Source: Parcubacteria group bacterium (lineage in GTDB: Bacteria > Patescibacteriota > Minisyncoccia > UBA6257 > JACRHW01). Taken from it: 64,000 bases of DNA. The DNA is taken from assembly GCA_016217555.1 (NCBI GenBank), contig JACRHW010000023.1, positions 466-64,465 on the forward strand. The letters are read 5' to 3'. A program made the translations under genes and the position numbers. The notes below the pieces were generated by a model that worked only from the letters and a program-made list of their open reading frames with translations, was not told the DNA's origin and made no database searches. Shown one piece after another: positions 13,138 through 64,000 of this stretch; position 1 is the stretch's first letter; each line of letters starts with the position of its first letter.

Positions 13138-16100
13138 ATGCGCATCATCGTTAAGTTTTTTTCAGTATTCACCATAAGCGTCACACTATTGACACCAAGT
13201 CTTCTTTTTGCACAAAGCCCAATATCCCAAACCCCAATCCCACTGATAGGGGGTTCTTATGCTCCACCCGCACAAGTCGATGTTGTAAACGTAGTATTAG
13301 AAAAACAACAATACAACGACGGTGATACGATTCGAGGATCATTCGCCCTAAGAAATGAGCGCGCAGAAAGCGTACCTGCTATTTATTACAAAATCATCTT
13401 GGGTGGTGATTTCGATGCACAAGGAAACGCAGGAACAATATACGATGTAAAAACATTCACTCCTTATTTTCTACGCCCCGGAGAATTTAAAACAATACAA
13501 TTTGAATATACACCCCCTATTGGCGTTACAGGAAAACATTTAGGAATAATCATAAATGCATTCCTCGAGCAAGGAACACCAGTGAGTTGGTCATTCCCTA
13601 TTTTTTTAAATGTAGCGGGTGACTTTTCTTATATTAATGCCTCGGATACAAAAATAGTCGTTAATAAAAAGGAATTTTCTACAGAAGAAGGTCCTGCACT
13701 TTATAAAAACCAAGTGGTAGAATACCATGTGACGCTTCAAAATCCCTCCTCAAAACAAATCACAATAACGCCTAAGATTGATATTTACAAACGAGTCGCA
13801 TTACCCCCCACTCTAAAAAGCTATAACGAAAAACAAATAACCCTCGCCCCAAAAGAAAAAAAACAAATAGTTTTTGAACTCCCCGATTTCGATTATAAAG
13901 CAGGCGTCTATGCGGGTACTATCTTGCTCATAAATAAAGAAGGAAAACAACAGGGACCACTATTAACATTCAGATATCTTGTATTAGGTGACACGCTTAC
14001 TATTGAGAATGTTACTCCCTCACACACCAGTGTAACAAAAGGTGCCTCATTCTCTATAAGGGTAGACTACAGCACGCCGTTAATTGATTTTGCTACAAGC
14101 CAAACGGTAGATCTGGGAACACCAATCCTTGAAATACAAGCATATAACGAAAGAGATTCTTTGGTCGCAGAAGGAAAAAGCACAATAAATCCAACCAAAA
14201 TAGAACGAAACAAAATATTCCAACTCAAAGCATCTGATGACGCCAAAGCCCTACGAATCGAAGCCAAAATTCTAAAAGACGACGTCATTATTGCCAAATA
14301 TTCAACCAACCTCTCCTCGGATTATGCAATCCAAAAAGAACGTAAAGATCTCTCCTACCAAGGGACTCTTCGTGCGTGGGTTTATGGAGTTATCGTCATA
14401 CTACTTCTTCTTGCTGCTACTGGCCTTTTTCTCCTCAAAAGAAAAAAGGGGGGCACACTACTTGTCGTTGGAGCAATCTTTCTTGCCATTTTTTCATCTC
14501 ATGAGACAAAAGCACAACTTGGAAAACAAACGCAACTTGGATACCAAACACAAACACAAGAACAACAATGTACTTCGCAAGGAGGAGTTTGGGTGCTTAA
14601 CACATCCAATACAGGAGGATCCTGTACACTTCCACAATCACTTTCGCTTGATTCAGTCGCTGCATCGCCTAACCCAACATCGTGGAGTAGCCAGGTTACC
14701 ACCCTGGGGTGGTCAGGAAAAGATGAAGTAAAAATAATAACAGAGACAAAAGACGTGTGCGTTCCAGGAAAGGCGTGTGTACCACAAACGACACAAAGCG
14801 CCAAAACGTTTCCTACGACCTGCACCTTATCTGGAGATAAATATTCTAATTACAATATCACTTCTTACCAAAATGATAGTGTAAATATGTTTAGTGCGGG
14901 ACCTGTTTTTTTAGGGGGAGATAAATCGTTTATATTAGGAGGTGGCACCAGCGGACCAGGATTCTCCACAGCAGTTCCAGACGAAGGAGCTACTTTTACC
15001 ATTACCTGTAGCAACTCAAATGGATCACATGCTTCACAAGTAATTGGTGTGGGGGTGGGGGGAACTTTCACTTACACAACAGCACCAAGCATTAACGTAA
15101 CTCCATACTTCAACCCCACCGCAGCAGTACAGACAACTCTTGCCCTAACCGCAAGCCCAACACAAGGACTGGTGAAACCTAGAGATACTATTTATCTTGG
15201 TGTAAATACTACCGGATCTGGATGCACAAACACATTTTCAACAGCAGTCTATACCATAACTCCAACATGGCCAGGAGCATCAACACAGTCAGGAAGTAAT
15301 GGTGTTGGGGGACATCAAATTCTTAATTATAATCTTCCTTATACTTTTGCGGTTACAATACCAGAAAATACACCATCTGGAATTTATCGTATTTACCTTT
15401 CTACAAATTATTTTCTTGGTGGATATTGGGAAATTAAAGTTAAGGCTCCAAACCCAACCATCGGATCATTCTCTGCAAATCCAACCACAATAGCGAAGGG
15501 CGGGACCTCTTACCTTTCGTGGTCATCGAATAATGCAACCTATTGCACACTTTCTAGTGTCGGAAACGTCCTCAAAAACTCAAGCTCATACCCTGTTTCT
15601 CCGACGCAAGATACAACGTATACACTTACTTGCTACAATGCCTCAAACGTCCCATCGCCAACATCACAACTCACAGTAAACGTCTTATCAATTGGTTCGT
15701 TTAGTGGGGCAGCATCGATAATACCCAAAGGAGGAAGTACCACACTTACGTGGTCATCAAACCACACAGATTCCTGCTCACTCTTTGCAAATGGAACTCT
15801 GTTTGCAAGTGGACTGAGTGGAAATACTTCTTATACTGTTTCTCCTTTAGTGGATACAACCTATACACTCACCTGCTATGGAGGAGGCACTCAAATTTCT
15901 GCAGGAAATTCAGTACCCATAAAAATTTTAGCAATTGATACATTCACGGGCCCCGCAAACACAACAATACTTACTGGAGATACAGTAAACCTTTATTGGA
16001 CAACAAGGAATGCAGCATCCTGCTCATTATCAAGCGTTGGTAATGTACCTACAACAGCAAATCCATTTACCGTCTCCCCCACCCAAGACTCGACGACCTA

Positions 16101-16824
16101 CACTCTTACCTGTTCTAGTGGCGGTGTTTCGTATACATTCCCCACACCGATCGTCATTAAAATCCTCTCTATCCCAGTCTTCACTATCTACCCCACTACA
16201 ATCTACAGAAGTAATCCTACTACAGCCACTCTTACTTGGATTACCAAAAATGCATCAACATGTAACGCCTCATCGGATCCAAATGTATCTGATTGGTCGG
16301 GATTAAAAACGGTAGGCAACGATGCTTCGGGACAAGGTTCTCAAAAACAACAAACGATAACGCTCCCGAGTCCACCCAAAGGATCTGCACCAAGAAAATA
16401 CACTCTCACATGTACAGGTCCAGGAGGAGCGCCAAGTCTCCCGAAATCCATAGAGGCACCAAAAGATTTCATTTTCCATACCCTACTCACCAAAATAACG
16501 TGTTCAAAAGACAACACAACCTTTGGAGACTGTTCTGGAATAAAGCTTGTTGCAGGAAGCTCAATATATCTTAAGGACGAATCTGATCCAACACCAGGCT
16601 CAACAATTTCAAGTCGTCTATGGACATTTAGTAACGGGAAACCATCAACATGTCCTTCATCTCATGCAGGATGTACTAATCTACAAATCCCAAAAGTATC
16701 CTTCCTTACCGAAGGGACACAAACGGCAACGCTTGTCGTAACCGATTCTGCGGGAGAGACAGAAACGATCTCGAAGACATTCAAAATCTCAAAACCATCA
16801 TTCCAAGAAACAGCGCCACAGTAG
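13138..16824 (+). CDS. Giant surface protein, paralog 1: signal peptide, N-domain, central membrane helical hairpin, 4 Ig-like Cys-containing repeats, conserved C-terminal domain
   Basis: 1,228-aa ORF. Signal peptide MRIIVKFFSVFTISVTLLTPSLLFAQS. TM helix + KRKKGG followed immediately by a second signal-peptide-like helix (aa ~410-455). Four ~85-aa repeats with the pattern L.W.S.NA..C...(YTLTC). The C-terminus is near-identical to paralog 2. Confidence 0.8.
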   Translation: MRIIVKFFSVFTISVTLLTPSLLFAQSPISQTPIPLIGGSYAPPAQVDVVNVVLEKQQYNDGDTIRGSFALRNERAESVPAIYYKIILGGDFDAQGNAGTIYDVKTFTPYFLRPGEFKTIQFEYTPPIGVTGKHLGIIINAFLEQGTPVSWSFPIFLNVAGDFSYINASDTKIVVNKKEFSTEEGPALYKNQVVEYHVTLQNPSSKQITITPKIDIYKRVALPPTLKSYNEKQITLAPKEKKQIVFELPDFDYKAGVYAGTILLINKEGKQQGPLLTFRYLVLGDTLTIENVTPSHTSVTKGASFSIRVDYSTPLIDFATSQTVDLGTPILEIQAYNERDSLVAEGKSTINPTKIERNKIFQLKASDDAKALRIEAKILKDDVIIAKYSTNLSSDYAIQKERKDLSYQGTLRAWVYGVIVILLLLAATGLFLLKRKKGGTLLVVGAIFLAIFSSHETKAQLGKQTQLGYQTQTQEQQCTSQGGVWVLNTSNTGGSCTLPQSLSLDSVAASPNPTSWSSQVTTLGWSGKDEVKIITETKDVCVPGKACVPQTTQSAKTFPTTCTLSGDKYSNYNITSYQNDSVNMFSAGPVFLGGDKSFILGGGTSGPGFSTAVPDEGATFTITCSNSNGSHASQVIGVGVGGTFTYTTAPSINVTPYFNPTAAVQTTLALTASPTQGLVKPRDTIYLGVNTTGSGCTNTFSTAVYTITPTWPGASTQSGSNGVGGHQILNYNLPYTFAVTIPENTPSGIYRIYLSTNYFLGGYWEIKVKAPNPTIGSFSANPTTIAKGGTSYLSWSSNNATYCTLSSVGNVLKNSSSYPVSPTQDTTYTLTCYNASNVPSPTSQLTVNVLSIGSFSGAASIIPKGGSTTLTWSSNHTDSCSLFANGTLFASGLSGNTSYTVSPLVDTTYTLTCYGGGTQISAGNSVPIKILAIDTFTGPANTTILTGDTVNLYWTTRNAASCSLSSVGNVPTTANPFTVSPTQDSTTYTLTCSSGGVSYTFPTPIVIKILSIPVFTIYPTTIYRSNPTTATLTWITKNASTCNASSDPNVSDWSGLKTVGNDASGQGSQKQQTITLPSPPKGSAPRKYTLTCTGPGGAPSLPKSIEAPKDFIFHTLLTKITCSKDNTTFGDCSGIKLVAGSSIYLKDESDPTPGSTISSRLWTFSNGKPSTCPSSHAGCTNLQIPKVSFLTEGTQTATLVVTDSAGETETISKTFKISKPSFQETAPQ

Positions 16825-16978: not shown

Positions 16979-19900
16979 ATGCGTATTTTAAAATTCTTTT
17001 CGGTCGGAACAATCCTTTTATCATTACTATCCCCTCTCTCGATCTTTGCACAGACACCTACTCCAACACCACCAGCGCAAAAATCTTTTGCACCACCTGT
17101 TCAAGTATATGTTATTGAGGAAACTCTGAACAATGCAGAGTTTAGGGGTGGAGACACAATAAAAGGATCTTTTAAGTTTGTGAACAGAGGAGATGAAAAT
17201 ATTCCTGAAGTATATTACCACTTATCCCTTATGGGCGATTATGACAAAAATGATGCCCCTGGAGTTATTTATGATCAAAAAACATATGGTCCATTTTTCT
17301 TGCATACTCAAGAGACAAAACCTATAGATTTCGAATATACACTACCGAAGGGAATAAGCGGAGATCACATAGGCATACATATTAGTACATTTTTAAAAAC
17401 TGGGTTATTCCTTGGATGGTCACAATCCTTCATAAAAATACAAGGAGAAACACACCGCATAGATTTCTCCAAAGTAAGCTTGGCGGTAGATAAAAACGAG
17501 TTTGATCCAGAAACAGGACCAGCTGTCTATAAAGGAAAACAAATCACCTACAACGTTACCCTGTTTAATCCCTCCACCGATACAATTACATTTACCCCCA
17601 CAAATCACTATATATAAAAGGAATCCTATTCCTCCTGCTATCACAACATACAATGAAAAAGAGATAACCCTCAAATCAAAAGAAAGCAAAGAAGTACGTT
17701 TTCTCTTGCCAACATTCGATTATCAACCATCTGTATATGTCGGCAATATTACCTTTATTACCCAAGACAAAACACCAGCAGGACTCTTCTTAACATTCAG
17801 ATATATAATAATGGGAAAAGTGGTCGGAATAGATTCCATCATATCTGAAAAAACATCTATAGAAAAAGGGCAAACGCTTACTGTTAAAGTAAATTACAGT
17901 GGCGCTCCTGCTGACAATATCACCTTCGAAAATACAAAAATAGGAATTGTCACACTGCGCGTAAAAGTAATAAACGAAACAGGTACGACGATAGGACAGG
18001 GGGAAGAAACTATCGATGCTGATGACCAATCGATGACAACAAAAAACGTCCACATTCTCGCACGAGAAAGTGGGAAAAAAATAAGTGTTGAAGCTCAAAT
18101 CATAAAAGACGGTAGTATCTTGGGGGAATATTCTTCAACACTATCTCCGCCCGAAGAAACAAACAAACTCACCTTATTCCCACTTTCAAAAAAGATCATC
18201 TATTCCTTTATTATTTTTCTCATATTCTTAATGGGCATAATGGTTTTGAAATCAAAAGGAAAAAAGGTAATTACAATTTTCTTGCTAGGACTCTCCCTCA
18301 CAACACCTGGACTAACTATACCAAATACATCACGTGCCGCATCGGGTACCTCCTATTTCCAATATACTTCTTCATCTCATACTTCAGTTCGAGATCTCAC
18401 TTTCGATCTTACTGGCGTAAATCCAATTCCCTACTATCTAAATCCAGGAGAGTCTTTCTATATATCAGGAACATATGTGGGTGGGTTCTGCGCTAATGGT
18501 CATTTGCAAGGAAGCACTTCGGTAAGTATCTCAGGAGGAGGAAGTTGGAGCTGGGGATGGAATATTCAAGGGTCTGGTGGTCATCATCATGGAGTTTTTT
18601 CTCAAGGGTTTGGCTATTGGGTTTCTGCACCAACACAGCCAGGTGTATATAATGTTAATTTCTCGACCAATGCACTTGGCCCATCAATAAACGGCTACTG
18701 GCAAATCCAAGTTATCCCCCCTCCTCCATCAATAAACTATTTTAATGGAGGCCCACTTGTAACCATTCCAGGAATTCCCGCATATCTGAATTGGTCATCA
18801 AATAACGCCTCCTCGTGCACGGTGTGGGGAAGTTCCAGTGGTCTCCCTCCAGTAAGATCTGGTTATCCCGTATATCCAAACCAAGACACCTCATACAGTC
18901 TCACGTGTTATAATTCGGCCGGTGTTTCAGCTAGCTATCCCTACCCCATAACCGTATCTATACTGCGTATTAATTCCTTTGGTGGCAGTCCGCCAATAAT
19001 TGCAAAAGGTGGTTCGGAAAATCTTTTCTGGTCTTCAAACCATGCATCAAACTGCGTTATCCCAGGTGTCGGAACATTCTATCCCGGTTCTTCAGCGACA
19101 GTATCCCCGATACAAGACACTACCTACACACTACAATGTTCTAATGGGGGTGTGTCTATTACCTATCCAACCCCTGTCACCGTCAAAGTTCTATCTATAG
19201 ATTCGTTCGGAACTTCTTCCCTCATCGCTTCTGGGGAATCTGCGACTCTTACATGGACTTCTCATAATGCAATCTCCTGCTCACTATCAGATGGATCCAA
19301 AACAATCGCAAGTGGTCTTCCTGGAAATGGCTCACATCCAATTTCCCCACAACAAGATACTTCGTACACCCTCACCTGCACAAATGGAAGCGTCTCATAT
19401 ACCTACCCCACACAAGTCACTATTAAGATTCTCGATATTCCTATTTTTACCATTGATCCAAAGGAAATCAATCGTGGTCAACAGGCAACGCTCACGTGGA
19501 TTACTAAAAATGCATCCACGTGTACCGCCTCGTCAAATCCGAACGATTCCACGTGGATATATACCAACCCGCCAAAAAATGATAATCAACAATCAAAAAA
19601 TGTTACACCACCAAATCTACCTCCAGGGTCAATACTTCGCAACTATTCTCTCACCTGTACAGGACCTAGTGGAATACCAAGTCTCACAAAATCAATACCG
19701 GCTCCAGGGCTTAAGGTTCACACCCTTCTTCCTGAATTTCAATGTTCAATGACAGGACAACCAGGATCCTTCGGGGATTGTTCAACTATGAAGTTGGTTG
19801 CAGGAACTACAATATATTTCAAAGACACCTCCAGTCCAACCCCACAAGCAACTATTGCAAGTCGGGCATGGATATTTACGAATGCAAAACCAGCAGGATC

Positions 19901-20048
19901 AAATACAGCAACCACAAAAACATCCTTCCTTACCGAAGGGACACAGACAGCAACGCTTGTCGTAACCGATTCTGCGGGAGAGACAGAAACGATTACCAAA
20001 ACATTCAAAATCTCGAAACCATCGTTCCAGGAGACAGCGCCACAGTAG
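16979..20048 (+). pseudogene. Giant surface protein, paralog 2, interrupted by a +1 frameshift in a C5 tract (track ORFs 16979..17617 and 17502..20048)
   Basis: The two overlapping frames align collinearly with paralog 1 (…ITFTP | QITIYKR… versus ITITPKIDIYKR). Removing one C at 17595-17599 restores a single ~1,020-aa ORF with the same architecture as paralog 1. Confidence 0.7.
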
Positions 20049-46828: not shown

Positions 46829-46855
46829 TTGGCACTCTCGACATATGAGTGCTAA
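46829..46855. promoter_or_regulatory. CIRCE operator (HrcA binding site) upstream of groES: TTGGCACTC-N9-GAGTGCTAA
   Basis: Matches the CIRCE consensus TTAGCACTC-N9-GAGTGCTAA at 17 of 18 positions. 88 nt upstream of the groES ATG. Confidence 0.85.
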
Positions 46856-55375: not shown

Positions 55376-55413
55376 ATTTTAGCAATTAGCACTCTAATGT
55401 CAAGAGTGCTAAC
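55376..55413 (-). promoter_or_regulatory. hrcA promoter overlapping a perfect CIRCE operator (CIRCE 55387-55413: TTAGCACTC-N9-GAGTGCTAA; -35 TTGACA at 55399-55404 inside the CIRCE spacer; -10 TAAAAT at 55376-55381, minus strand)
   Basis: 18/18 match to the CIRCE consensus. The sigma70 hexamers have 17-nt spacing and are embedded so that HrcA binding would occlude the promoter. Confidence 0.8.
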
Positions 55414-55445: not shown

Positions 55446-55473
55446 ATGTCATTCCCGCTTGTGCGGGAATGAC
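55446..55473. repeat. Palindrome TGTCATTCCCGC-TTGT-GCGGGAATGACA upstream of the hrcA promoter region
   Basis: 12-bp arms read directly. No adjacent T-run on either strand. Confidence 0.45.
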
Positions 55474-55494
55474 ATGAGTATATTTATATAAAAA

Positions 55495-55518
55495 TAGAAA
55501 AGCCCTTGCTGGGCTTTT
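55495..55518 (-). terminator. Terminator after the RHH gene / surface-protein operon
   Basis: AAGCCC-TTGCT-GGGCTT hairpin with a short T-run on the minus strand. Confidence 0.45.
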
Positions 55519-55523
55519 GTTGA

Positions 55524-55778
55524 TTACTTATAAATGGGGAGTACAATAACGTCCTTTGTCGTTTTGTGTACAAGATGAACTTCATATTCCTCATCACAAA
55601 CCTTAGTTAAAACAAAATAGAGAAGCTCCAACGCAACCCTGACGACCACACTTCGACTCTGGGAAGTATTTGTACACAACTCCTCAAGAACCTTTTTTGT
55701 CTTCTCGAATAAAAAAATATTAATGTGCATTGTCTTTCCCTCTTCTTGCACGCTATCATCCTCCTTCTTTTGAGACAA
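55524..55778 (-). CDS. Small ribbon-helix-helix (CopG/Arc-like) DNA-binding protein, putative
   Basis: 84 aa. The segment HINIFLFEKTKKVLEELCTNTSQSRSVVVRVALELLY fits the beta-strand + two-helix RHH pattern. Last gene of the surface-protein operon. Confidence 0.45.
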   Translation of the reverse strand: MSQKKEDDSVQEEGKTMHINIFLFEKTKKVLEELCTNTSQSRSVVVRVALELLYFVLTKVCDEEYEVHLVHKTTKDVIVLPIYK

Positions 55779-55832
55779 AGAACTACTGTAGTATATAACA
55801 GAACTTATGCTTTTTGTCGAATCACCAACTAA

Positions 55833-58800
55833 TTAGCGATTAGTATTCTTTGCACGTTTTAGGATGATTGCGCAGAGAAGAATGAGTATAATGAGACCCA
55901 ATAATTTCCATAGCGTAACACGATCACGTATACCGCCACTATATAAAGTATTGATAATCGTCTCCCGAAATCCTATTGGTTTTAATTCAATGGTGCGCGT
56001 AAGAAGCTGTGATTCTACCTTAAATATCTCAGTTTTAACATCAGTATATCCCAATTTTGAGGCGGTAAGATAATAAGTGCCCTGTGGTACAAAAAAGGCA
56101 AATACACCATCGCCTCCTGTGATATATGGGTTTTTTTGTGCATAGGATATTGCATTCCATAACGTAAATGCATTCGTATGCTCATCTTGCTTATAAAGCC
56201 TGACGTACGCATTGGGTATACGCCACTCCTCTCCCCCTCGCTTGGTATAAACATACCCGGATGGATCAACAAGTATGTTTGTTGTAATCTCCTTTGAACT
56301 CCCATCCTTGTAAAGCACCGACACTGTTGCCTCGTATGCCCCCCTTTCCTGTGGGGCAACGACGTGTGCTGAAAAAGTATCTTTCATTTCAGTAGGTGCG
56401 AGCAAATATGAGGTAGTATCAAAATGAAGGGTAATAGCTTTAACTGATGCCTGTGCCTGATCCTGAAGAAGAGAAAAGATAAGAGGAGTTTCTGTGGTAG
56501 TTTCAATCGGATTCGAAGAAGTAACTGTGTGTATCATCTCACGCCCACCTATATCAGTGATAATAGAAAGAAAGGGGGGTGTCGGAGAAATATTTTGTTC
56601 AAAAGGTTTGGATGGTGTCGTGGAAATCAACGAAGGTGTGTTAACAACGAAAGTTTCGATAGATGGTGTGGTTAAGGTCGGTGTAGGGGTTGCAACAATA
56701 GCACCCGAAGCCACATTACCCTTCGTGTCTATCGTAAAAATACTATAATAATATTTCTTGCCCTGTTGTGCAGTAGTATCAGTTGCCTGTTGTGCTTTTC
56801 CTTCGAATATCACCGTACCTTCTTGAAGAGTAAGCGGGTAGAATGTTTCGCTGCGCACCACTTTTATTGTTTTAAGTTCCGATTGGGGAGGATTTTGCCA
56901 TTCGAGGAGGAGAGCATCTTGTTGTGACGAAATCTCAACATTTTTTACATTTGATACGGATGTTTGATTTTTAAAAAGATTAAGGTCGAGAAGATCAGGA
57001 ACAAGAATGTTGAGTTTTGCTAGTGTATTTTTTAACACCTTTCCATAGACAGGACTTCCTTCGCAAGCGATACCCTGTATGCACTGAAACTCTCCCACCG
57101 CCCCCTCTGTTTTTGGACCAAAAAAAGGAGAGATCGGTCCGGAGTACAATCCTGATTTTGCAAGAAAACTTTTAAGAACATATACATCATCGCCCTGACT
57201 TCCAAGCACAAGGGGACGAAGAAATGCGAGCTGTGGGGGAAGCTCTGGAACGATGGGTTGTGTGGAGGTTGGCGTTGTTTGTTGTTGATTTTGTGAAGGA
57301 GGTGTGGGTGCGGGACCAACAATGATAGGAGTACTATTACTCACAACAGGTGGGGCGGGGGTTATGGTGAGAGACACAGTATGAGAGTTGAACAATGCAC
57401 CCAGCGCAAGAGAGAGTGGGTTGACCACAAAAAGACGGGTGGTCGAAAACGCACCATAATCAGTGTAACCACCCGTCGAAGCTTTTGCCGCTGCACGCCA
57501 ACAATAATTTGCGTTTGATAATCCAGTACGAATTAAATATGCACTTTGAGCACCACCCGAGGTATTATAGATTCCCGTACCACTCCAACCCGGCGTAGAG
57601 GTGGAGTCAAGTGTAGTAATCCCAGAAGAAAATGTCTCTGAAGCACAATTGGTGTCATTACGTGTGACGTATTGAAGACGTACATTGAGAGTACGCGCAT
57701 CACCATCATTCACAGTCATGCCAAAAAATACCGATGAGCCGGTGGTAATACCATCACTAGGGTCGAGAGCAGTAGTGGTGGGCTGAGCACCAAAAACGAT
57801 AGTACCAACACCACCCGACAGTCGACCAGCTATTCCGGCATTGACTGCCCGCATAGAAGTATCCGCCAAACGATTCGTAAAATAAATAGCAATCCGGCCA
57901 CCACCACCAGCGCCACCGGTTGTACTCGTTGAATTACCCCCATTAGCGACGACGGAACCACTCCCCGTCAGCAGACCAGTGTTGATATATACCGATCCAC
58001 CGGCCCCACCACCACCCTGATCGGAACCAGCCACACCATTGGTGGTGATTGACCCATCGAGAGTCAATGTACCAGACAAAGCAAATCGAATAGCGCCACC
58101 ACCAGCGCCACCACCAGCGCCACCACCGCCGCCAGAACCCAAATCAGTCGGTGTCGTTGCACTGTCGTAAATTGCACCAGCCGTTCCTGCTGAACCTTCA
58201 CCCCAATTACCGGCTGCGCCAGCACCACCATGGCCGCCACCGCCACCACCATATCCGCCACAGCTTCTATCACCGCCACCGCCTGGACCACTACCACCCG
58301 ATCCGCCACAACTTATGCTACCAACGTAACCCTGGCCGTTAGCAGTAATGCTTGCACCACTGTCAACCTGCATATTAGTAGCAGTGATAACCACACCAAC
58401 CCCACCCGATACAGCATTTGTATTCTTACCACCCAAAGTCACGGTTGAGGTTCCCACAATGTTCAATGCACCAGACACTGTCAGATCTGATGCGCCACCA
58501 AGCGTCATTAAACTACTACTGACCGTGACGGTTGATCCAGCCGTAATCGGTGAGGTTGTACCGGTGATGAATGTGCCACCACCATCAACAATAATCGTCG
58601 AACCAACAGTGATAGGCGAATTGGCACCGATAGTCAATGAACCGCCGTTTACAGCTAGCGTCCCCGCAAGAATGATCGTTGAACTATCACCAGTCAACAC
58701 CGTTCCACCACTAGCCACAACCAGAGTCTGAATTGCCAGAGTAGTAGAAGCAGGATATACAAAGTTTTTGTAAACCGACAACCTTCGCGTGGCATCGGTT

Positions 58801-59867
58801 AGATGCCCCGACAAATCAGTTACCTGGAAAAAGCCAGTTGTACCTGCGTTCGAAGTCAAACTAAAATTAGTGCCTCCATTAGCAGTTGAAGCAGTGAATC
58901 CGGCAAAGCTGTTGTTGGTAACATAGTAAACTGCCACTCTTCCACCGCCACCAGCGGTATTGCCGATATGGCCAGCATCACTTGAATATCCACTACTACC
59001 CCCATTCGCCACCAGACTCCCTGAACCGGTCAACGTTCCTACTGTCACATAGATTGATCCACCAGAGCCTCCACCAGCGGCGCCATTTCTGCTTCCCCCA
59101 CTAGTCCCGTTGGCGGTAATGGTTCCATTGAGCGTCAGCGTATTAGTCACACTCAGACGAATTGCGCCACCACCAGTACCACCAAACGCACCGCCACTAG
59201 TACAGCAACTACCGGAACCACCCGATCCAAAATCGATTGGTGCCACTGAGGAACCATATGTGGCCTCCGGTGTATTGGGCCCATTGCCCGCTCCGCCATA
59301 TGTCCCACCATTACCATCGTTGTTACAGTTGAGTGGTCCACCACCTGGACCAACACCTGCCGATGAACAGTTGGTGCCGGCAAAACCCTGTCCATCAGCG
59401 ACAATCAATGCCCCACTGGCAACAGACACGTAGGCAAATGAGACTGGAATCTTCGCGCCGCTCGATCCATAAATCTCACTGCCAACAACGAGTCGTCCTG
59501 AGCCAAGAATCGTCAGTGTGCCACCACCGTTAAATGACCAGCCACTCGATTCGTATGTACAACCATGATCACCCACACCAGTACTGTTGAGCGACATACC
59601 ACTCGTACCGCCAATAGTAAGGGTAACACCATCATTAATAGTAAGATTACCGATGTTTGAAGGAATATCACTCGCGTCACACCAGATGGTATTTGTTGAG
59701 ATAGTAGAATCGGTTGCAAAAACACGCGGAATATAATGAAAAGAAAGAACAACAACAACAGATAGTATTACAAAAAAAACAATACTGATATGAAAAAATC
59801 GTTTATGTGTTACTATATTCAATAATTTTTTTATGGAAAACATGTTCAGTAAAAAATCAAAATCCAA
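55833..59867 (-). CDS. Giant (1,344 aa) cell-surface protein: N-terminal anchor/signal, duplicated Gly-rich beta-helix modules with GGGAIR (polymorphic-membrane-protein-like) motifs, PG_binding_1-like domain, Ig/Fn3-like domains, CarboxypepD_reg-like domain, C-terminal TM + basic tail
   Basis: Internal duplication of a ~160-aa module (...FGGTGGGAIRLSVTNTLTLNGTITANG...GGGSGGSIYVTVGTLTGSGSLVANGG... and ...GGGAGGGAIRFALSGTLTLDGSITTNG...GGGAGGSVYINTGLLTGSGSVVANGG...). GDDVYVLKSFLAKSGLYSGPISPFFGPKTEGAVGEFQ matches the peptidoglycan-binding motif. C-terminus LLGLIILILLCAIILKRAKNTNR. Confidence 0.8.
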   Translation of the reverse strand: MDFDFLLNMFSIKKLLNIVTHKRFFHISIVFFVILSVVVVLSFHYIPRVFATDSTISTNTIWCDASDIPSNIGNLTINDGVTLTIGGTSGMSLNSTGVGDHGCTYESSGWSFNGGGTLTILGSGRLVVGSEIYGSSGAKIPVSFAYVSVASGALIVADGQGFAGTNCSSAGVGPGGGPLNCNNDGNGGTYGGAGNGPNTPEATYGSSVAPIDFGSGGSGSCCTSGGAFGGTGGGAIRLSVTNTLTLNGTITANGTSGGSRNGAAGGGSGGSIYVTVGTLTGSGSLVANGGSSGYSSDAGHIGNTAGGGGRVAVYYVTNNSFAGFTASTANGGTNFSLTSNAGTTGFFQVTDLSGHLTDATRRLSVYKNFVYPASTTLAIQTLVVASGGTVLTGDSSTIILAGTLAVNGGSLTIGANSPITVGSTIIVDGGGTFITGTTSPITAGSTVTVSSSLMTLGGASDLTVSGALNIVGTSTVTLGGKNTNAVSGGVGVVITATNMQVDSGASITANGQGYVGSISCGGSGGSGPGGGGDRSCGGYGGGGGGHGGAGAAGNWGEGSAGTAGAIYDSATTPTDLGSGGGGGAGGGAGGGAIRFALSGTLTLDGSITTNGVAGSDQGGGGAGGSVYINTGLLTGSGSVVANGGNSTSTTGGAGGGGRIAIYFTNRLADTSMRAVNAGIAGRLSGGVGTIVFGAQPTTTALDPSDGITTGSSVFFGMTVNDGDARTLNVRLQYVTRNDTNCASETFSSGITTLDSTSTPGWSGTGIYNTSGGAQSAYLIRTGLSNANYCWRAAAKASTGGYTDYGAFSTTRLFVVNPLSLALGALFNSHTVSLTITPAPPVVSNSTPIIVGPAPTPPSQNQQQTTPTSTQPIVPELPPQLAFLRPLVLGSQGDDVYVLKSFLAKSGLYSGPISPFFGPKTEGAVGEFQCIQGIACEGSPVYGKVLKNTLAKLNILVPDLLDLNLFKNQTSVSNVKNVEISSQQDALLLEWQNPPQSELKTIKVVRSETFYPLTLQEGTVIFEGKAQQATDTTAQQGKKYYYSIFTIDTKGNVASGAIVATPTPTLTTPSIETFVVNTPSLISTTPSKPFEQNISPTPPFLSIITDIGGREMIHTVTSSNPIETTTETPLIFSLLQDQAQASVKAITLHFDTTSYLLAPTEMKDTFSAHVVAPQERGAYEATVSVLYKDGSSKEITTNILVDPSGYVYTKRGGEEWRIPNAYVRLYKQDEHTNAFTLWNAISYAQKNPYITGGDGVFAFFVPQGTYYLTASKLGYTDVKTEIFKVESQLLTRTIELKPIGFRETIINTLYSGGIRDRVTLWKLLGLIILILLCAIILKRAKNTNR

Positions 59868-59934
59868 AGGTCAAAACTACAACGCAAAACCTAAAACTAG
59901 TAACTCCTAAAAGCTAACAGCTATGGGCTAAAAG

Positions 59935-60669
59935 CTAGTTTGGTGTTGCCGTAAGTGTAACTGTCGCTCCATAACTTCCATCAGAAATTGTAGCACCTTT
60001 ATTCTCTGCTTTATAGCGAATAGTTGTAGTGTTTCCCACTGCAGACGTTCTCGTATAAATTCTGCTTACAAGTTCCTTGGTGGCGCCCTTAAGGCCCAAA
60101 AAACATAAACCATTTGCAGTCCCACCTCCACATGTTGACCCCGTATTTTTAAAGTTGGTCATCACATCCATTCCTGTTGCAGAAAATCCGAACGCAGCAC
60201 CCGTTGCAAGTTGCCATAATTCAGGAATAGTACTTACCGCTTCGGAGTAATCATTGATCGAACTTGAACTAGAAGCAAGTGCCGGAGTACCGCTCGCATT
60301 AATTTCTAATTTGTATCCTGCAGGATTATCAGTAATTACCGTTACAGAAGTGGTACCAGAAGCGACACCGGATACTCCACTCTGCAGAGCAGGAGTAAGC
60401 GTTGTCGAACTGGCAAGAGATATAGAAATAAAAGACTCGTTGAGCTGTAAAAAACCACCGAAAGCCCTATAGCTTGCACTCTGCATAAGTCCGGGAGCAA
60501 GTTCTCCTGAAGTATCTGTTGCTCTATAATTTGTAGAACTACTAAGACCGGATGCATCATTCAAAGAGTCCTGCAAAATTTTGAAATTTTGGGAACTCAT
60601 AGTATCACCCCACACAAGTGAGGTGAGAATAAAAAAGGCAATTACACTAATGCTGGCACGTGTGATCAT
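59935..60669 (-). CDS. Secreted Ser/Thr/Gly-rich surface protein (244 aa), possibly WxL/cell-wall-associated-like
   Basis: Signal peptide MITRASISVIAFFILTSLVWG, low-complexity S/T/G-rich beta-rich sequence, and a single ELWQL motif. The assignment is tentative. Confidence 0.55.
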   Translation of the reverse strand: MITRASISVIAFFILTSLVWGDTMSSQNFKILQDSLNDASGLSSSTNYRATDTSGELAPGLMQSASYRAFGGFLQLNESFISISLASSTTLTPALQSGVSGVASGTTSVTVITDNPAGYKLEINASGTPALASSSSSINDYSEAVSTIPELWQLATGAAFGFSATGMDVMTNFKNTGSTCGGGTANGLCFLGLKGATKELVSRIYTRTSAVGNTTTIRYKAENKGATISDGSYGATVTLTATPN

Positions 60670-60687
60670 AGAAGAAATGACAAAATA

Positions 60688-62949
60688 CTACGGACTAGTA
60701 CTCGATGCCGTGCTTGTAGTTTCGGAAAATAGTGTTTCTGTCTGAGTTGATGTCGCCGTTGAGTTTGATAAGACAGGCACGGAAGATGTTGATGAGGTGT
60801 TTTCGGGTGTATCAAGTTGCTCGCACGTACCTTTCATTTTTGTAATTTCTCCATTTTGGAGGGTCAGACAATAATAGTCGCCTGTAATCTTATCCTTCAT
60901 GGTTACTCCATTTTCCACCTGGATATATTTTGTACCAAGAAAGGACGTCTGAATTTTATCGAACACCCATGTCCCTGTAGCTTTAACAGTGCCGGTAAAC
61001 GAGGCAAGAGCATTCGTAAGCATTCCCGAAAAACTACCCGACGAAACACCTCCACCACCAAATACATCATCCCCAAGGTGATACCCAAGATTTGCAAAAA
61101 CAAGAATTATTTTAATCTCGCTTGATATCTCGCCTTCATAATTCTCAAGAGCGTAACCAATAATTCTCCCTGATTTCGTTGCTTTCATACCAACCCCTGC
61201 AATATCACTTGAGGTAATTGGGTCACCAATGTGTATCGATCCATTTTTAAGTGAAATTTTTGTAGGAACACGGCCAGAGAGAGCGAGAGGAACACTTTTC
61301 TCCATACTCCCCCCAAGAAGTACACCAGGTTTCTTTGAAACAATACCCAACAACTTATTATCATAAGAAACACTTGACTTACTAACCCCAAGAGATTGAT
61401 TAGAAAAACTTACAATATCTCCAGATTCTAGCGAAGCATCAGAAGCAATATAATTCTCAGCAAGATCAGCACCACCAGGAGTAAATGTTCCATCCGCATA
61501 TACATTACCATTAGTATCAACACGAAAAACTGTATTTTGAACACTTCCGACATCACTGAACGCCTGAAAAATATTTACCGCAGAGGTACTCGTCGCAAGA
61601 TATACATCAAGAGTAGAAGATGGATTTGTACTACCAATCCCCACCCTCCTTTGAGCAAAATCCCCATAGATAAGAGGCGTACTCGAATTATTCGCAATAT
61701 ATAATTTATTGGAACCGGTTTCGTTGTAGCCTGATTGATAACCAAGGAAAAGATTACCATTTCCAAGAGAAGAATAGCCCGCCTGATTACCCAATCCTAC
61801 ATTTTGTGTTCCAGTTAAATTGGAGTACAGAGAATTAAAACCCACAGAAACATTCTCTGATCCAGAAGTATTGAAACGTAAGGCAGCAGAACCCAAGGCG
61901 GTGTTATTGCCACCAAAAGTATCACTGGCAAGTGCATATCCTCCTATTGCTGTATTTATACCACCAGTGGTGTTGGTAGTAAGCGCCCCATCCCCTAAGG
62001 CGACATTGCCACTACCCGTGGTATTACTAAAAAGAGACCTCCAGCCGATACCAACATTAGAGGCACCAGTAGTGTTTGCACCCCCAACCTCGCTTCCAAC
62101 AAATATATTATGTATACCTCCACCACCAGCATTGTTTATATTGCCAGAGCTAGTACCCAAAAATAAATTCGTTGAATCATCCGAGTGCAAACGGAAAAGC
62201 TCAGAACCCGTATTCGTGAGAACTTGGATGATTGGATTTGAGTTTGATTGGGTGCTATTTGCGCGAACAATGAGTTGTGGAATATTTGCAGTTCCCTTGA
62301 CGTCGAGCGCAGCAGAAGGAGTTGAGGTGCCAATACCTAGTCGCACGTTCACTTCATCGTATGTAGAGCTTGCTCCGAAAAATATTTTCCCTTTTGTTGC
62401 GTTTGCTGTTGATTGTAACGTAAGATTTTCACCAGATGCGGTTCCACCTTGCAATGTTTGCCCACCCGATCTTCCCGCAAGAAGTGCAAATTCCGTTTCA
62501 CTTTTTCCTCCCACCTTGTTTGCATTAAACGCAAAAACAGAAGCACCAATACGCTTCCTTGGAGTCATCTCAGCATCCGAGCCAATTTGAACACCCAGAT
62601 AAAGTGGATCCTGGTTAAAATCTACAGCACCCAATGCCCCGCTACTCTCAATCAACGTACCACTTCCAATCAAAGCACTAAATAACCCATTTGCTGTGGT
62701 CGCACTTTGTTGTTCAGCGTAGAGAGCCGATCCACCGCTTGAAACACCATAAATACGAAACTTAACGGTATAGGCTGCATCCGCCACGGCAACATTATTT
62801 GTATCAGTAAGTTTTGCCTGATATGAAATAAGTGAAGTGATTGTAGCATGAGACGTAATAGGAAAGACGATAAAAGAAAAAACAACGTATCCTGATACTA
62901 CGCAGCGTAATAATAATCCCCGTATCTTTTTCACCGCAATCTTTTGCAA
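60688..62949 (-). CDS. Fiber-like secreted protein (753 aa) with 17-residue N(V/T)A(L/I)G..AL..NTTG.. beta-roll repeats (YadA-head / phage-tail-fiber-like)
   Basis: N-terminal signal/anchor. Six or more consecutive 17-aa repeats (NVGIGWRSLFSNTTGSG / NVALGDGALTTNTTGGI / NTAIGGYALASDTFGGN ...). C-terminal globular domain and S/T-rich tail. Confidence 0.7.
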   Translation of the reverse strand: MQKIAVKKIRGLLLRCVVSGYVVFSFIVFPITSHATITSLISYQAKLTDTNNVAVADAAYTVKFRIYGVSSGGSALYAEQQSATTANGLFSALIGSGTLIESSGALGAVDFNQDPLYLGVQIGSDAEMTPRKRIGASVFAFNANKVGGKSETEFALLAGRSGGQTLQGGTASGENLTLQSTANATKGKIFFGASSTYDEVNVRLGIGTSTPSAALDVKGTANIPQLIVRANSTQSNSNPIIQVLTNTGSELFRLHSDDSTNLFLGTSSGNINNAGGGGIHNIFVGSEVGGANTTGASNVGIGWRSLFSNTTGSGNVALGDGALTTNTTGGINTAIGGYALASDTFGGNNTALGSAALRFNTSGSENVSVGFNSLYSNLTGTQNVGLGNQAGYSSLGNGNLFLGYQSGYNETGSNKLYIANNSSTPLIYGDFAQRRVGIGSTNPSSTLDVYLATSTSAVNIFQAFSDVGSVQNTVFRVDTNGNVYADGTFTPGGADLAENYIASDASLESGDIVSFSNQSLGVSKSSVSYDNKLLGIVSKKPGVLLGGSMEKSVPLALSGRVPTKISLKNGSIHIGDPITSSDIAGVGMKATKSGRIIGYALENYEGEISSEIKIILVFANLGYHLGDDVFGGGGVSSGSFSGMLTNALASFTGTVKATGTWVFDKIQTSFLGTKYIQVENGVTMKDKITGDYYCLTLQNGEITKMKGTCEQLDTPENTSSTSSVPVLSNSTATSTQTETLFSETTSTASSTSP

Positions 62950-63017
62950 AAAAGTTATGTAAAAAAAGAATAAAACGAAACTATTATTAGTATATCAAAT
63001 TAAATGTTCGTAAGCAT

Positions 63018-63860
63018 CTAAGTTATCCACAAAGTACGAAATCTGATAACAAGAAAAGCTAAAACAATAGCAAGAAAGATCGCACGAAGAGGTAAGACAA
63101 AAAGATAATTGGTTTTTTGATGTTCTCCCTGAAGATCAAGGGAAACAGAGTAGACCCCCCACTGACGAATAGAGTAGGGAATTCCTATTTTTTTTTCCTC
63201 ACCAGGGAGTATATAAAAAGGCGCGACAGGAACTTCGACAGACTTACCACCAAATACGCTCTTTACCGAAATATTCCCAGACTGCTTCATGTATACGTTT
63301 CCAGAATTTTTGTACTGTATACCAAAGGCAACATCAGAACCTTCCTGCACCAAAGGCACCTCAAATTTCTTAAGCAGACCCGATGGGTGGAGTGCGTGTT
63401 GAGTGTCTATGGTCACAAAAACCTCGGTTGATACTCTACTTACCACCATCACACCACCACCGTTCCGTGTATTTTCACTTATCACGACATTGGCGTAATA
63501 CACTCCATCTCCAATTCCCCCAGGGGCTTGGATAACAAGCGAAGAAGAAATTTTCTCGTTGGGGCGTAAGGTGAAAACAGGAACTTCTACAGTAATCCAG
63601 TCATGGGCATCTGCGACACCATTACCACGACCTTCAGGAGCTACTTTAAAATCAACGGTTTCGTTACTATGATTTACAATAGTGAGAGTACTTGTCCCCA
63701 TTCGATGTTCTGTGAGATCAAAATCAAAATGAACCGGAGAAACAATAAAATCATTTCCCGCAGACAACGGAATGTGTGTAATAGTAAACGCATGCGCGTG
63801 GGGAACAATAAGCCCCACTATTAGACCTAAACTAATAAAAAAATACGTTATTAATTTCAT
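63018..63860 (-). CDS. Secreted two-domain beta-rich protein with C-terminal TM anchor (280 aa)
   Basis: Signal peptide MKLITYFFISLGLIVGLIVPHAHA and C-terminal LFVLPLRAIFLAIVLAFLVIRFRTLWIT. Contains an A9 run (63188-63196, minus strand). The architecture is reminiscent of Gram-positive DUF916/DUF3324-type anchored surface proteins; this is tentative. Confidence 0.55.
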   Translation of the reverse strand: MKLITYFFISLGLIVGLIVPHAHAFTITHIPLSAGNDFIVSPVHFDFDLTEHRMGTSTLTIVNHSNETVDFKVAPEGRGNGVADAHDWITVEVPVFTLRPNEKISSSLVIQAPGGIGDGVYYANVVISENTRNGGGVMVVSRVSTEVFVTIDTQHALHPSGLLKKFEVPLVQEGSDVAFGIQYKNSGNVYMKQSGNISVKSVFGGKSVEVPVAPFYILPGEEKKIGIPYSIRQWGVYSVSLDLQGEHQKTNYLFVLPLRAIFLAIVLAFLVIRFRTLWIT

Positions 63861-64000
63861 TGATGCGATTTTGGTGGTATCGTCCGTGCCTGAGATGGCG
63901 TTACCACACGCAAAGATTGAATCCTCGCCTCTATATCACTTTTCTGAAGAGGGGTAGCAAAAACCAACGCTTTCTCATAATAAGAAATACCCGCAGACGA
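63857..64000 (-). CDS. 3' end (last 47 codons) of an upstream gene running off the window; stop TGA overlaps the next ATG (ATGA)
   Basis: Open frame from the window edge (...SLRVVTPSQARTIPPKSHQ*). Translational-coupling overlap with the 63860 start. Confidence 0.4.
   Translation of the reverse strand, partial: SSAGISYYEKALVFATPLQKSDIEARIQSLRVVTPSQARTIPPKSHQ

Follow-up and report, generated by a model that had tools for sequence, protein, structure and literature searches.

[quoted passage not shown]

Gene content and borders of the operon

In the window, by which we mean the whole 64-kb stretch of DNA that was analysed, taken from a Parcubacteria MAG, six minus-strand genes form an operon in the order W-A-B-C-D-E (Table 1). 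The original prediction, made from the sequence alone, had described five genes; all five of these open reading frames, A to E, are present where it placed them and with the features it gave them, and the ATGA overlap of the W stop and the A start, by which it had coupled A to an upstream gene, is real. The count rises to six: the upstream partner, cut off by the window edge, is a 770-aa Wzy_C/TPR membrane protein, recovered in full, and with no phage genes beside it, when the sequence beyond position 64000 was inspected as had been advised. Gene spacing is tight across the operon; the start codons of B, D and E are TTG or GTG, and their positions are uncertain by 5-16 codons. The products all carry signal peptides or membrane anchors, which, together with the Parcubacteria origin of the MAG, agrees with the earlier view that the genes are transcribed together and that their exported or anchored products act as a surface attachment apparatus in a CPR bacterium.

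A terminator-like hairpin probably marks the end of the operon. Downstream of E lies a separate CIRCE-controlled unit, hrcA-grpE-dnaK, which has a near-consensus promoter of its own and, at 55386-55412, a perfect CIRCE element; the remainder of the window holds housekeeping genes. Neither the 64-kb window nor the 6.7 kb past its edge contained a capsid, terminase, integrase, baseplate or sheath gene. Scans of 29 window ORFs and of 23 proteins from related loci gave no match to usher or PapD Pfam families, and LPXTG motifs and sortases are absent from the cluster.

Table 1. Features of the W-A-B-C-D-E operon, in window coordinates
Feature	Coordinates	Strand	Description
Gene W, 3' end	63857..64000	(-)	Stop overlaps A start; full W = L001 4541-6853 (same genome)
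Gene A, 280 aa	63018..63860	(-)	Signal peptide, two beta-sandwich domains (AF2 model), C-terminal TM helix 258-279
Gene B, 753 aa	60688..62949	(-)	Secreted, tail-fibre-like; S/T-rich C-terminal tail
B N-terminal domain, residues 31-235	62245..62859	(-)	Common to large cassette fibre proteins of other Patescibacteria
B repeats, residues 298-399	61753..62058	(-)	Six 17-residue repeats, N.a.G..aL..NttG..
Gene C, 244 aa	59935..60669	(-)	Signal peptide, N-terminal extension, predicted Ig-like pilin-fold core; 'C2 type'
C N-terminal extension, residues 26-80	60430..60594	(-)	Three S-x-N-Y/F strands; conserved
Gene D, 1344 aa	55833..59867	(-)	Signal peptide or anchor, two Gly-rich modules, PG-binding domain, Ig/fn3/CarboxypepD_reg-like module, TM helix
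D Gly-rich module 1, residues ~202-346	58830..59264	(-)	GGGAIR at 232; beta-helix-like
D Gly-rich module 2, residues ~565-692	57792..58175	(-)	GGGAIR at 589; beta-helix-like
D PG_binding_1, residues 891-933	57069..57197	(-)	Pfam E 1.1e-5, 25.9 bits; gathering cut-off of 23 passed
D shared module, residues ~960-1290	55998..56990	(-)	Common to D' proteins; fn3-like, Rib-like, CarboxypepD_reg-like
D C-terminal TM helix, then KRAKNTNR basic tail	55860..55913	(-)	From sequence
Gene E, 84 aa	55524..55778	(-)	Possible ribbon-helix-helix protein, weak
Terminator-like hairpin, AAAAGCCC-AGCAA-GGGCTTTT + T-run	55498-55518	(-)	6 nt past E stop

Predicted properties of the gene products

The product of A is most likely a PapD/WxLIP-like membrane-tethered chaperone or anchor, as judged from its modelled fold and from sequence profiles. 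It keeps the predicted form of a PapD/FimC-like chaperone together with a C-terminal TM helix, a combination that marks the Pam system discussed below. Independently of the AF2 model, a profile of the A family matches the EfmWxLIP1 PDB sequence over domain 1 (E 1.5e-10), and 23 of 41 A-like proteins match Pfam WxLIP_PGBD (PF06030, DUF916; best 9.8e-7). A searched singly against Pfam gave no match, neither A nor its family matches DUF3324 (PF11797), and A has no sequence similarity to PapD_N/C. WxLIP is the sole significant sequence homology of the A family, and A is the only chaperone-like gene in the cluster.

The C protein (S+T 27.9 %, G 10.2 %) is by profile comparison a distant homologue of PamT and not an equivalog: the NCBIfam model NF058579 CPR_pilus_PamT matches it at 37.9 bits (E 1.2e-9), not reaching the equivalog cut-off of 240 bits, in an alignment that pairs C residues 5-128 with model positions 8-130 of 241. 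This alignment covers the N-terminal half only and takes in the signal peptide. The same model is matched by 130 of the 149 C-family members (best E 1.1e-14), and the distant homology of C to PamT, like that of the A family to WxLIP, is shown at the profile level, the folds of both proteins being predictions. In structure comparison the predicted fold of C is closest to that of polymerising chaperone-usher pilins. Its two cysteines are nearly invariant across the family, which comprises >2,000 clusters and is without any Pfam model. Neither C nor any of 98-149 family members matches Pfam WxL (PF13731) at a threshold as loose as E<=1, and C has no sequence similarity to fimbrial Pfam families. 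C-like domains are also found C-terminally in large proteins of the LamG, DUF2341 or Gly-rich type, and one distant C homologue has glycosyltransferases as neighbours and no A-like gene.

The N-terminal extension of C is a candidate donor-strand segment. Its conservation is 2.38 bits vs 2.18 bits for the core, yet in the AF2 monomer its pLDDT is 56-66 vs >95 for the core, a combination to be anticipated where a stretch folds against a partner. C1-type paralogues in other genomes are without this extension. Neither a second C-like gene nor a two-domain major pilin of the PamA/PamB type was found in the window, and a second C-like domain is absent from B and D (hhalign probability <1 %; hmmsearch).

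B had been described as fibre-like, resembling phage tail fibres or trimeric-autotransporter heads. Its repeats stand up, starting at residues 298, 315, 332, 349, 366 and 383 with a period of exactly 17, and its phage likeness is limited to this repeat module: PHROG tail-fibre and virion-structural families match B at 7.7e-21 to 2.7e-12, and phage tblastn matches are restricted to residues ~284-490 (<=27 % of B, <=49 % identity). A Peptidase_G2 match to residues 457-549 is weak. One B-like relative matches NCBIfam Bdello_MAT_N at 7e-6; B itself has no match to that model.

Both GGGAIR motifs of D lie within sequence that is duplicated inside the protein (blastp, 41 % identity over 145 aa, E 1.9e-7); Gly-rich module 1 has no Pfam match. 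Among the domains first proposed for D, the peptidoglycan-binding domain holds, scoring above the Pfam cut-off and also matched by the NCBIfam SleB N-terminal region (7.7e-6). SleB is cortex-lytic. The CarboxypepD_reg match (residues ~1218-1290; E 1.5e-5, 25.7 bits) falls under the cut-off of 32.3, D itself has no Pfam fn3 match, and a Rib-like stretch at residues 1170-1201 is weak (1.8e-4).

At the operon ends, W is a polytopic membrane protein in which a Wzy_C (O-antigen-ligase-like) domain, aligned over residues 205-353 to model positions 2-148 of 149, scores under the gathering cut-off of 31.7 (PF04932; E 1.9e-6, 28.2 bits), and C-terminal TPR repeats match TPR families at 1e-13. The Wzy_C superfamily includes O-antigen ligases, polymerases and PglL/PilO O-oligosaccharyltransferases. 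The W-A adjacency is kept in loci L003/L006 and L004/L005; among the related loci examined, W is known only from this clade and one Moranbacteria locus. The reading frame of E is as predicted, and its assignment as a ribbon-helix-helix regulator is weak, since the Pfam RHH_1 match (E 2e-3, 18.4 bits) lies under the cut-off of 20.5 and the search against PDB sequences gave no match; PHROG 876 'transcriptional repressor' matches at 8.8e-5. E was seen in the window and in L001 of the same genome, and in no related locus examined.

The cassette in other Patescibacteria and its relation to known systems

Linkage was counted in 46 independent Patescibacteria loci, this genome being excluded. An A-like gene adjoins a C-like gene, or is fused to it in frame, in 43 of the 46. 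The usual cassette order is C1-A-C2-D'-B. Its D' protein, ~430-550 aa long with fn3 and a TM anchor, matches the C-terminal third of D; it comes after C in 35 of the 41 loci with room, and a C1 paralogue lies upstream of A in 32 of 40 with room. With phmmer, D module ~960-1290 matches D' genes in 36 loci; D' proteins, most of which also have a C-terminal TM helix, match Pfam fn3 (1.8e-11) and CarboxypepD_reg (2.9e-5). The B N-terminal domain was found by iterated profile in 34 of 52 sources (51 loci and the window), elsewhere usually in the gene directly after D'. Of the best 150 family representatives, 40 are 400-700 aa long, and ~16 of these are fusions of the form A-TM-SP-C; D'-B gene fusions also occur. 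In-frame A-C fusions imply 1:1 production, which suits a stoichiometric complex more than a catalytic chaperone for a long polymer. In relatives, genes of the A, C, D' and B types keep together; the A-B-C-D order of the window departs from the common arrangement. These data point to a cassette widespread in Parcubacteria-type lineages, related to yet distinct from the Pam pilus.

Pam pili were recently described from the CPR bacterium Candidatus Mycosynbacter amalyticus (Troman et al., bioRxiv 10.64898/2026.03.03.709456). [quoted passage not shown] That study reports Pam mainly from Saccharimonadia and Microgenomatia and does not mention Parcubacteria. The present cluster shares with Pam the Sec-exported parts with neither usher nor trans-envelope machine, the anchored chaperone-like A, the predicted Ig-like C, the co-localised B and a CPR-restricted distribution; D', with fn3 and a C-terminal TM helix, and the C-terminal third of D may correspond to PamR. 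It differs in having one chaperone-like gene and no PamA/PamB-type major pilin, in the score of C far below the PamT cut-off, in its host lineage (Parcubacteria and relatives), in the enlargement of D by two beta-helix modules and a PG-binding domain, and in the translational coupling of W. Pam neighbourhoods also hold ATP synthase genes; a Pfam scan of 20 window ORFs gave none.

The Firmicute WxL/Csc clusters encode WxLIP proteins of DUF916-DUF3324-TM architecture, a strand of which is predicted by AlphaFold2 to insert into the WxL partner (Hassan et al. 2023, PMC10599100; PDB 9i1y, 9i25). The cluster logic is the same, with one anchored WxLIP-like protein, two small partners and an anchored protein, as are 'large' forms bearing the partner domain at the C-terminus. 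However, WxL/Csc clusters are recognised by >=2 adjacent WxL-domain (PF13731) proteins and no such pair is present here: C has no detectable WxL domain and a predicted fold like that of chaperone-usher pilins. DUF3324, LPXTG and sortase are likewise missing, a giant tail-fibre-like protein is a core member, and the phylum is Patescibacteria. Chaperone-usher pili (archaic Csu, with CsuC chaperone and CsuA/B pilin) depart in that the present system has no outer membrane or usher, its chaperone-like A is membrane-anchored, PapD_N/C or fimbrial Pfam similarity is lacking, and the C extension has ~55 residues as against a single short strand. The organism, as a member of the CPR, is a monoderm.

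B shares its 17-residue repeat module with phage tail fibres; with the mosaic adhesive trimer (MAT) fibre adhesins of Bdellovibrio (Caulton et al. 2024, PMC10769870) it shares modular variation behind a conserved N-terminal domain and an organism likely living on other cells. It differs in missing the MAT model and in being Sec-secreted from a chaperone/pilin cassette, not a virion or predator invasion locus. Since A appears to be a PapD/WxLIP-like chaperone or anchor and C a PamT relative with the pilin fold, donor-strand fibres (Pam pili, WxL clusters) are closer models than the S-layer-like or trimeric-autotransporter-type structure originally suggested.

Proposed assembly and competing readings

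On balance, we favour the view that W-A-B-C-D-E encodes a Sec-dependent surface fibre or adhesin system of the usher-less donor-strand type, a Parcubacteria version of the Pam and WxL systems, which most likely sits anchored in the cytoplasmic membrane of a tiny, probably host-dependent bacterium. In the mechanism that we infer, the C-terminal helix would tether A to the outer face of the membrane, where A would bind newly exported C and contribute a strand completing its Ig-like pilin fold. The 55-residue extension of C may then engage the next component via donor-strand exchange, to build a short adaptor or, alternatively, a thin fibre made of C alone. D would serve as the membrane-anchored base, fixed in the envelope by its TM helix, basic tail and PG-binding domain; its Ig/fn3-like module would be the part common to the anchors of other cassettes and its beta-helix modules a lineage-specific extension. 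B, as a putative trimeric tail-fibre-like adhesin, would join the structure through its conserved N-terminal domain and provide the distal host- or substrate-binding element. W may glycosylate S/T-rich exported proteins or link the structure to a wall polymer, and E is possibly a small DNA-binding regulator.

Host finding and attachment are central questions in the biology of ultrasmall CPR/Patescibacteria, a radiation whose largest portion, and the one least brought into culture, is formed by the Parcubacteria-type lineages. To our knowledge, host finding and holding have so far been tied only to type IV pili and, very recently, Pam pili (one cultured Saccharimonadia species). The present cassette defines a candidate parts list, namely a tethered chaperone, tip-type and donor-type pilins, an anchor and a variable fibre adhesin, in which the variable B fibres are candidate specificity determinants and so become targets for cryo-ET, proteomics and host-range prediction. 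It further makes an evolutionary connection of Gram-positive WxL surface clusters with chaperone-usher-like fibres open to testing. A tentative extension, which we would call possible, is that the Firmicute WxL/WxLIP, Saccharimonadia Pam and Parcubacteria systems all branched from a single ancient assembly system of monoderm envelopes that uses donor strands and no usher; in it, an anchored PapD/WxLIP-type protein would both fold and anchor pilin-fold subunits. The Parcubacteria branch would have become adapted to presenting giant tail-fibre-like adhesins that vary rapidly and by which episymbionts recognise their hosts, with some genomes making cleavable polyproteins (A-TM-SP-C, D'-TM-SP-B) and the present one coupling the system to a dedicated Wzy-like glycosylation or ligation enzyme.

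Several observations count against the fibre reading: the weak C-PamT match, the missing PamA/PamB-type pilin and second C-like gene, the A-C fusions, the C homologue found without A among glycosyltransferases, the differing gene order, and the score of W under the Pfam gathering threshold together with its narrow distribution. The cluster might instead specify a non-filamentous surface complex of the WxL/Csc type, with A holding C stoichiometrically at the wall or membrane, D and B co-displayed as adhesins, and neither polymer nor pilus. We regard this as rather unlikely, though the WxLIP homology of A speaks for it, as do the mirroring of C1-A-C2-D' by WxL clusters (TM-anchored WxLIP, two partner proteins, small or large, and an anchored protein), the C-like domains that end large proteins in the manner of 'large WxL proteins', the equimolar production implied by the A-C fusions and the PG-binding domain of D. 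Set against these are the failure of any C-family member to match Pfam WxL, the resemblance of the C fold to polymerising pilins, and the presence of the extension in C2-type and its lack in C1-type proteins, which is the donor/tip subunit pattern expected of a fibre; moreover, the related Pam proteins appear as filaments in cryo-EM.

It is improbable that the genes encode unrelated exported proteins, wall-remodelling or S-layer-like, that lie side by side and build no joint structure. The kinship of the D PG-binding domain with that of SleB, the Wzy-like nature of W and the lack of a direct family assignment tying B, D and E to A and C would fit such a collection, but the linkage of A, C, the D' module and the B N-terminal domain recurs in dozens of divergent genomes, A-C and D'-B gene fusions occur, and spacing is tight with translational coupling. 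As the original prediction had held, derivation from a prophage or tailocin tail-fibre module is highly improbable. B does match PHROG tail-fibre/virion families and phage tail fibres; this likeness is confined to the repeat module, the surroundings are housekeeping genes free of phage structural genes to 6.7 kb past the window edge, all products bear Sec signals, and the cassette is chromosomal and conserved across Patescibacteria.

Operon layout and boundaries

All five minus-strand ORFs of the original prediction (A to E) are found in the sequence (see table), with B, D and E opening on TTG/GTG start codons whose positions are uncertain by a few codons. The coupling of A to the gene upstream (W) was also borne out, the stop of W overlapping the start of A as ATGA. 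W is cut by the window edge; we read it on a public contig from the same genome (L001), which is identical to the final 9,977 bases of the window but for one mismatch and continues 6.7 kb beyond them. Its product, 770 aa long, is a polytopic membrane protein that ends in TPR repeats and contains a Wzy_C domain, aligned over the full model at E 1.9e-6 and slightly below the gathering score. Upstream of W on L001 lie small HAD-like ORFs, a 477-aa membrane protein on the opposite strand, a nucleotidyl-transferase, a diadenylate cyclase and a tgt fragment. At the other end, the terminator-like hairpin after E is followed by a near-consensus promoter that overlaps a perfect CIRCE element and lies ahead of hrcA-grpE-dnaK. 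The hairpin, the separate promoter of hrcA-grpE-dnaK and the W-A overlap together delimit the unit as W-A-B-C-D-E.

The CIRCE copy at the hrcA promoter (TTAGCACTC-N9-GAGTGCTAA) has a counterpart upstream of the groES/groEL region; with a chance expectation of 0.03, these elements represent ordinary HrcA regulation, and the hrcA copy also marks the boundary of the surface operon. Between the E terminator and the hrcA promoter is a perfect inverted repeat (ATGTCATTCCCGC-TTGT-GCGGGAATGACAT), from its sequence a candidate for a bidirectional terminator or for an operator.

Features of the window and of related loci and proteins
Feature	Source	Position	Strand	Length
Gene A	window	63018-63860	-	280 aa
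Gene B	window	60688-62949	-	753 aa
Gene C	window	59935-60669	-	244 aa
Gene D	window	55833-59867	-	1344 aa
Gene E	window	55524-55778	-	84 aa
Terminator-like hairpin downstream of E	window	55498-55518		
Perfect inverted repeat	window	55446-55475		13 bp
Near-consensus hrcA promoter	window	55403-55376	-	
CIRCE, perfect	window	55386-55412		
CIRCE, one mismatch	window	46829-46855		
S/T-rich giant protein	window	13138-16824	+	1228 aa
S/T-rich giant protein, paralogue	window	16979-17617 / 17502-20048	+	about 1000 aa
In-frame fusions A-TM-(signal-peptide-like segment)-C and D'-B, proteins	P0017, P0022, P0026 and others			
Same two fusion types, loci		L010 9062-10663, L021 8120-9682, L032 9017-10741, L038 3411-5015, L039 9110-10708; L031 3053-5328		
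Weak HTH_17 family, examples		L007 7126-8133, L025 6294-7166, L024 13665-14030		
C-like domain at C-terminus of large protein	P0062			2187 aa
C-like domain at C-terminus of large protein	P0161			1205 aa
C-like domain at C-terminus of large protein	P0024			670 aa
Most distant C homologue of the word search	L002 (contig ERR15087775_7067)	10001-10735		

The exported proteins and their relatives

Taken singly, A matches nothing in Pfam, NCBIfam or PHROG, and homologue searches recovered only seven clusters. Its AlphaFold2 model, built on a shallow alignment of seven sequences (pLDDT 77.9, one confident model), shows two beta-sandwich domains followed by a helix at the C-terminus (residues 258-279). 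Ig-like folds match many structures at this level, and we therefore sought support independent of the model. A profile of 41 A-like proteins from the related loci matches the PDB sequence of WxLIP1 (E 1.5e-10), and 23 of these proteins match the Pfam WxLIP_PGBD model. This was the sole PDB match among our sequence and profile searches, those with A, B, C, D and E singly and with the C-family profile giving nothing significant. WxLIP, found at the surface of Gram-positive bacteria, combines a signal peptide with two Ig-like domains and a TM helix, and AlphaFold2 predicts that one of its strands inserts into the WxL partner (PMC10599100). Thus, the model and the family profile identify A as a predicted tethered PapD/WxLIP-like protein.

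C is S/T-rich, as first described (Ser+Thr 27.9 %), and matches the NCBIfam model 'CPR-type pilus protein PamT' with an E-value of 1.2e-9, the N-terminal half alone being aligned and the score being 37.9 bits vs a cut-off of 240. An exhaustive profile search gathered 2,375 family representatives at E<=1e-3 (222 at E<=1e-30), and 130 of the 149 members tested match the PamT model (best 1e-14). No Pfam model exists for the family; an identity with the WxL or fimbrial Pfam domains was ruled out at the sequence level, as 98-149 members gave no match to them even at E<=1. TafC matches in 7 members most likely stem from laminin-G domains and not from the C domain. C may hence be regarded as a distant pilin-fold relative of PamT, through a sequence link that is weak in score. 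Its AF2 model (98 sequences) has an overall pLDDT of 86, with values >95 for residues 80-244 and of 56-66 for residues 26-80. Conservation of the N-terminal extension, which contains three S-x-N-Y/F strands, equals or exceeds that of the core (2.38 vs 2.18 bits) though its AF2 confidence is low, a combination that fits a segment folding onto a partner.

Long members of the C family end in a C-like domain placed behind LamG, DUF2341, fn3 or Gly-rich beta-helix domains and parallel the 'large WxL proteins' of Firmicutes; these multidomain proteins point to the C domain as an attachment module of general use. The L002 homologue (P0008, 31 % identity) has no adjoining A-like gene, its neighbours being GT4 glycosyltransferases, a MurJ-like flippase and a DUF4012 protein, which hints at a glycan link for some members. 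Its occurrence among glycosyltransferases without A indicates that C-like genes are not always part of a cassette.

The beta-roll repeats noted in B number six copies of exact period 17 (residues 298-399), and its phage-like part is confined to this repeat module (residues ~284-490). The original prediction held a prophage origin to be unlikely; it is ruled out by the lack of phage genes in the window and in the 6.7 kb beyond position 64000 on L001, together with the repeat-limited likeness of B. The N-terminal domain of one B relative resembles that of the Bdellovibrio MAT adhesins (PMC10769870).

In D, the predicted GGGAIR motifs (residues 232 and 589) lie within a segment that is duplicated internally, its copies sharing 41 % identity over 145 aa (E 1.9e-7). 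The peptidoglycan-binding-like domain is a PG_binding_1 domain above the Pfam threshold (residues 891-933), and a TM helix precedes the terminal KRAKNTNR, as predicted; Rib-like and CarboxypepD_reg-like matches are weaker than PG_binding_1. A C-like domain concealed in B or D was ruled out (hhalign probability <1 %). Local G+C is 0.49 at 58001-60000 vs about 0.41 elsewhere; the rise overlaps the Gly-rich (GGN codon) modules of D and is an effect of coding composition, no sign of foreign origin. The proposed RHH nature of E stands weakly, with RHH_1 at 18.4 bits vs a cut-off of 20.5 and PHROG 876 at 8.8e-5; further searches brought no more support for it, with nothing from the PDB. E was found in its own genome (window and L001) and in none of the related loci, and a regulatory role for it is speculative.

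A conserved cassette across Patescibacteria

A scan of species-representative genomes with the TDNPAGY-containing subset of the C family yielded 47 related loci, a set consequently biased towards genes of the C2 type (one of two C-like types) with that motif. Nearly all come from Parcubacteria-type Patescibacteria (Taylor-, Lloyd-, Nomura-, Vogel- and Kaiserbacteria, Paceibacterota, Moranbacteria). Two cassette contigs of 8.1 and 2.0 kb are labelled 'Nanoarchaeia archaeon' (L040, DATGWK010000115.1) and 'Gammaproteobacteria' (L035, CAZXEV010000107.1); mis-binning is likely, since the distribution is otherwise restricted to Patescibacteria.

HMM searches of the predicted ORF sets of 46 independent loci revealed that an A-like gene (~325 aa, signal peptide and C-terminal TM helix) adjoins, or is fused in frame to, a C-like gene in 43. 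Next comes D', a smaller D-like protein of ~430-550 aa (35 of the 41 loci with room), with a signal peptide, fn3 domains, a CarboxypepD_reg-like domain and a C-terminal TM helix, which matches D over residues ~960-1290. It is usually followed by a large protein (up to 2,820 aa) with the N-terminal ~200-residue domain of B, a domain detected in 34 of 52 sources (51 loci and the window). Of the 40 loci with room, 32 have a second C-like gene, C1, before A. In C1 proteins (median 226 aa) the alignment to the family profile begins no earlier than about position 83, so that they are devoid of the N-terminal extension, which is present in C2 proteins (median 258 aa), the type to which C belongs. The clade of the window (L003-L006) has the order W-A-B-C(-D), without C1.

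Of the best 150 C-family representatives, 40 measure 400-700 aa, and about 16 of these are A-TM-SP-C fusions; five genome loci carry such fusions besides. The fusions look polyprotein-like, with an internal signal peptide after the TM helix. From their sequences, the A-C and D'-B fusions suggest equimolar co-production, and their products are possibly cleaved by signal peptidase.

A family with a weak HTH_17 motif is found in 26 related loci: its long form (~280-440 aa), which adds a TM segment and a conserved domain at the C-terminus, lies upstream of C1, and its short form (~120 aa) between D' and B. Judging from sequence, the family may regulate the cassette; the window lacks it and has E instead.

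A putative usher-less fibre system and its genomic setting

The proposal of a surface attachment apparatus holds in outline; its specific nature is that of a chaperone/pilin-type cassette akin to Pam and WxL, with a sixth gene. Troman et al. (bioRxiv 10.64898/2026.03.03.709456) proposed that the Pam pilus of Ca. Mycosynbacter amalyticus consists of Sec-exported parts without an usher, and noted that its conserved neighbourhood is centred on a tail-fibre-like protein. Sec export and the lack of an usher are common to the present locus, whereas PamC, PamD, PamR, PamA and PamB can be likened to its proteins by description alone. The kind of system is thus known, if very recently described, and the present locus is a variant. 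The preprint mentions neither Parcubacteria nor WxL (bioRxiv 10.64898/2026.03.03.709456), and we found no literature link between DUF916/WxLIP and Patescibacteria.

In our view the locus probably encodes the Parcubacteria form of a surface-fibre system that relies on donor strands and has no usher, each mechanistic step being computational. A would act as chaperone or anchor, C as the donor-type subunit, D as a base fixed in membrane and wall and enlarged by two beta-helix modules and the PG-binding domain, and B as the distal adhesin; strand complementation, polymerisation of C and the order of subunits are all inferred. W could add glycans to the exported proteins that are rich in S/T, or connect the structure with a polymer, as deduced only from its Wzy_C-superfamily membership and translational coupling. 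The in-frame A-C fusions argue for equimolar complexes and thereby make a non-filamentous surface complex of the WxL type the main rival, which we judge rather unlikely. The fibre system would extend a pilus principle very recently found in CPR bacteria to their largest group, supply a defined conserved cassette for Parcubacteria-type lineages and suggest a link to Gram-positive WxL clusters.

The source genome is a Parcubacteria group MAG per NCBI (locus tags HZA35_03790, HZA35_03800). The remaining window is housekeeping (dnaJ, rmuC, groEL, dnaG, rpoD, comEC, gap, trxB, an H+-PPase, an AddA-like helicase and a cysteine desulfurase), and HMM searches found no second C-like or A-like gene in it even at E<=10. 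It also encodes two paralogous S/T-rich giant proteins with signal peptides, the second apparently split into two overlapping ORFs. Their long ORFs (13138-16824 and 17502-20048) have no Pfam match, and by HMM they are unrelated to A-D. The C-terminal ~40 residues are nearly identical in both (…FLTEGTQTATLVVTDSAGETETI.KTFKISKPSFQETAPQ), and from their sequences they are another candidate surface-protein pair of the same genome.
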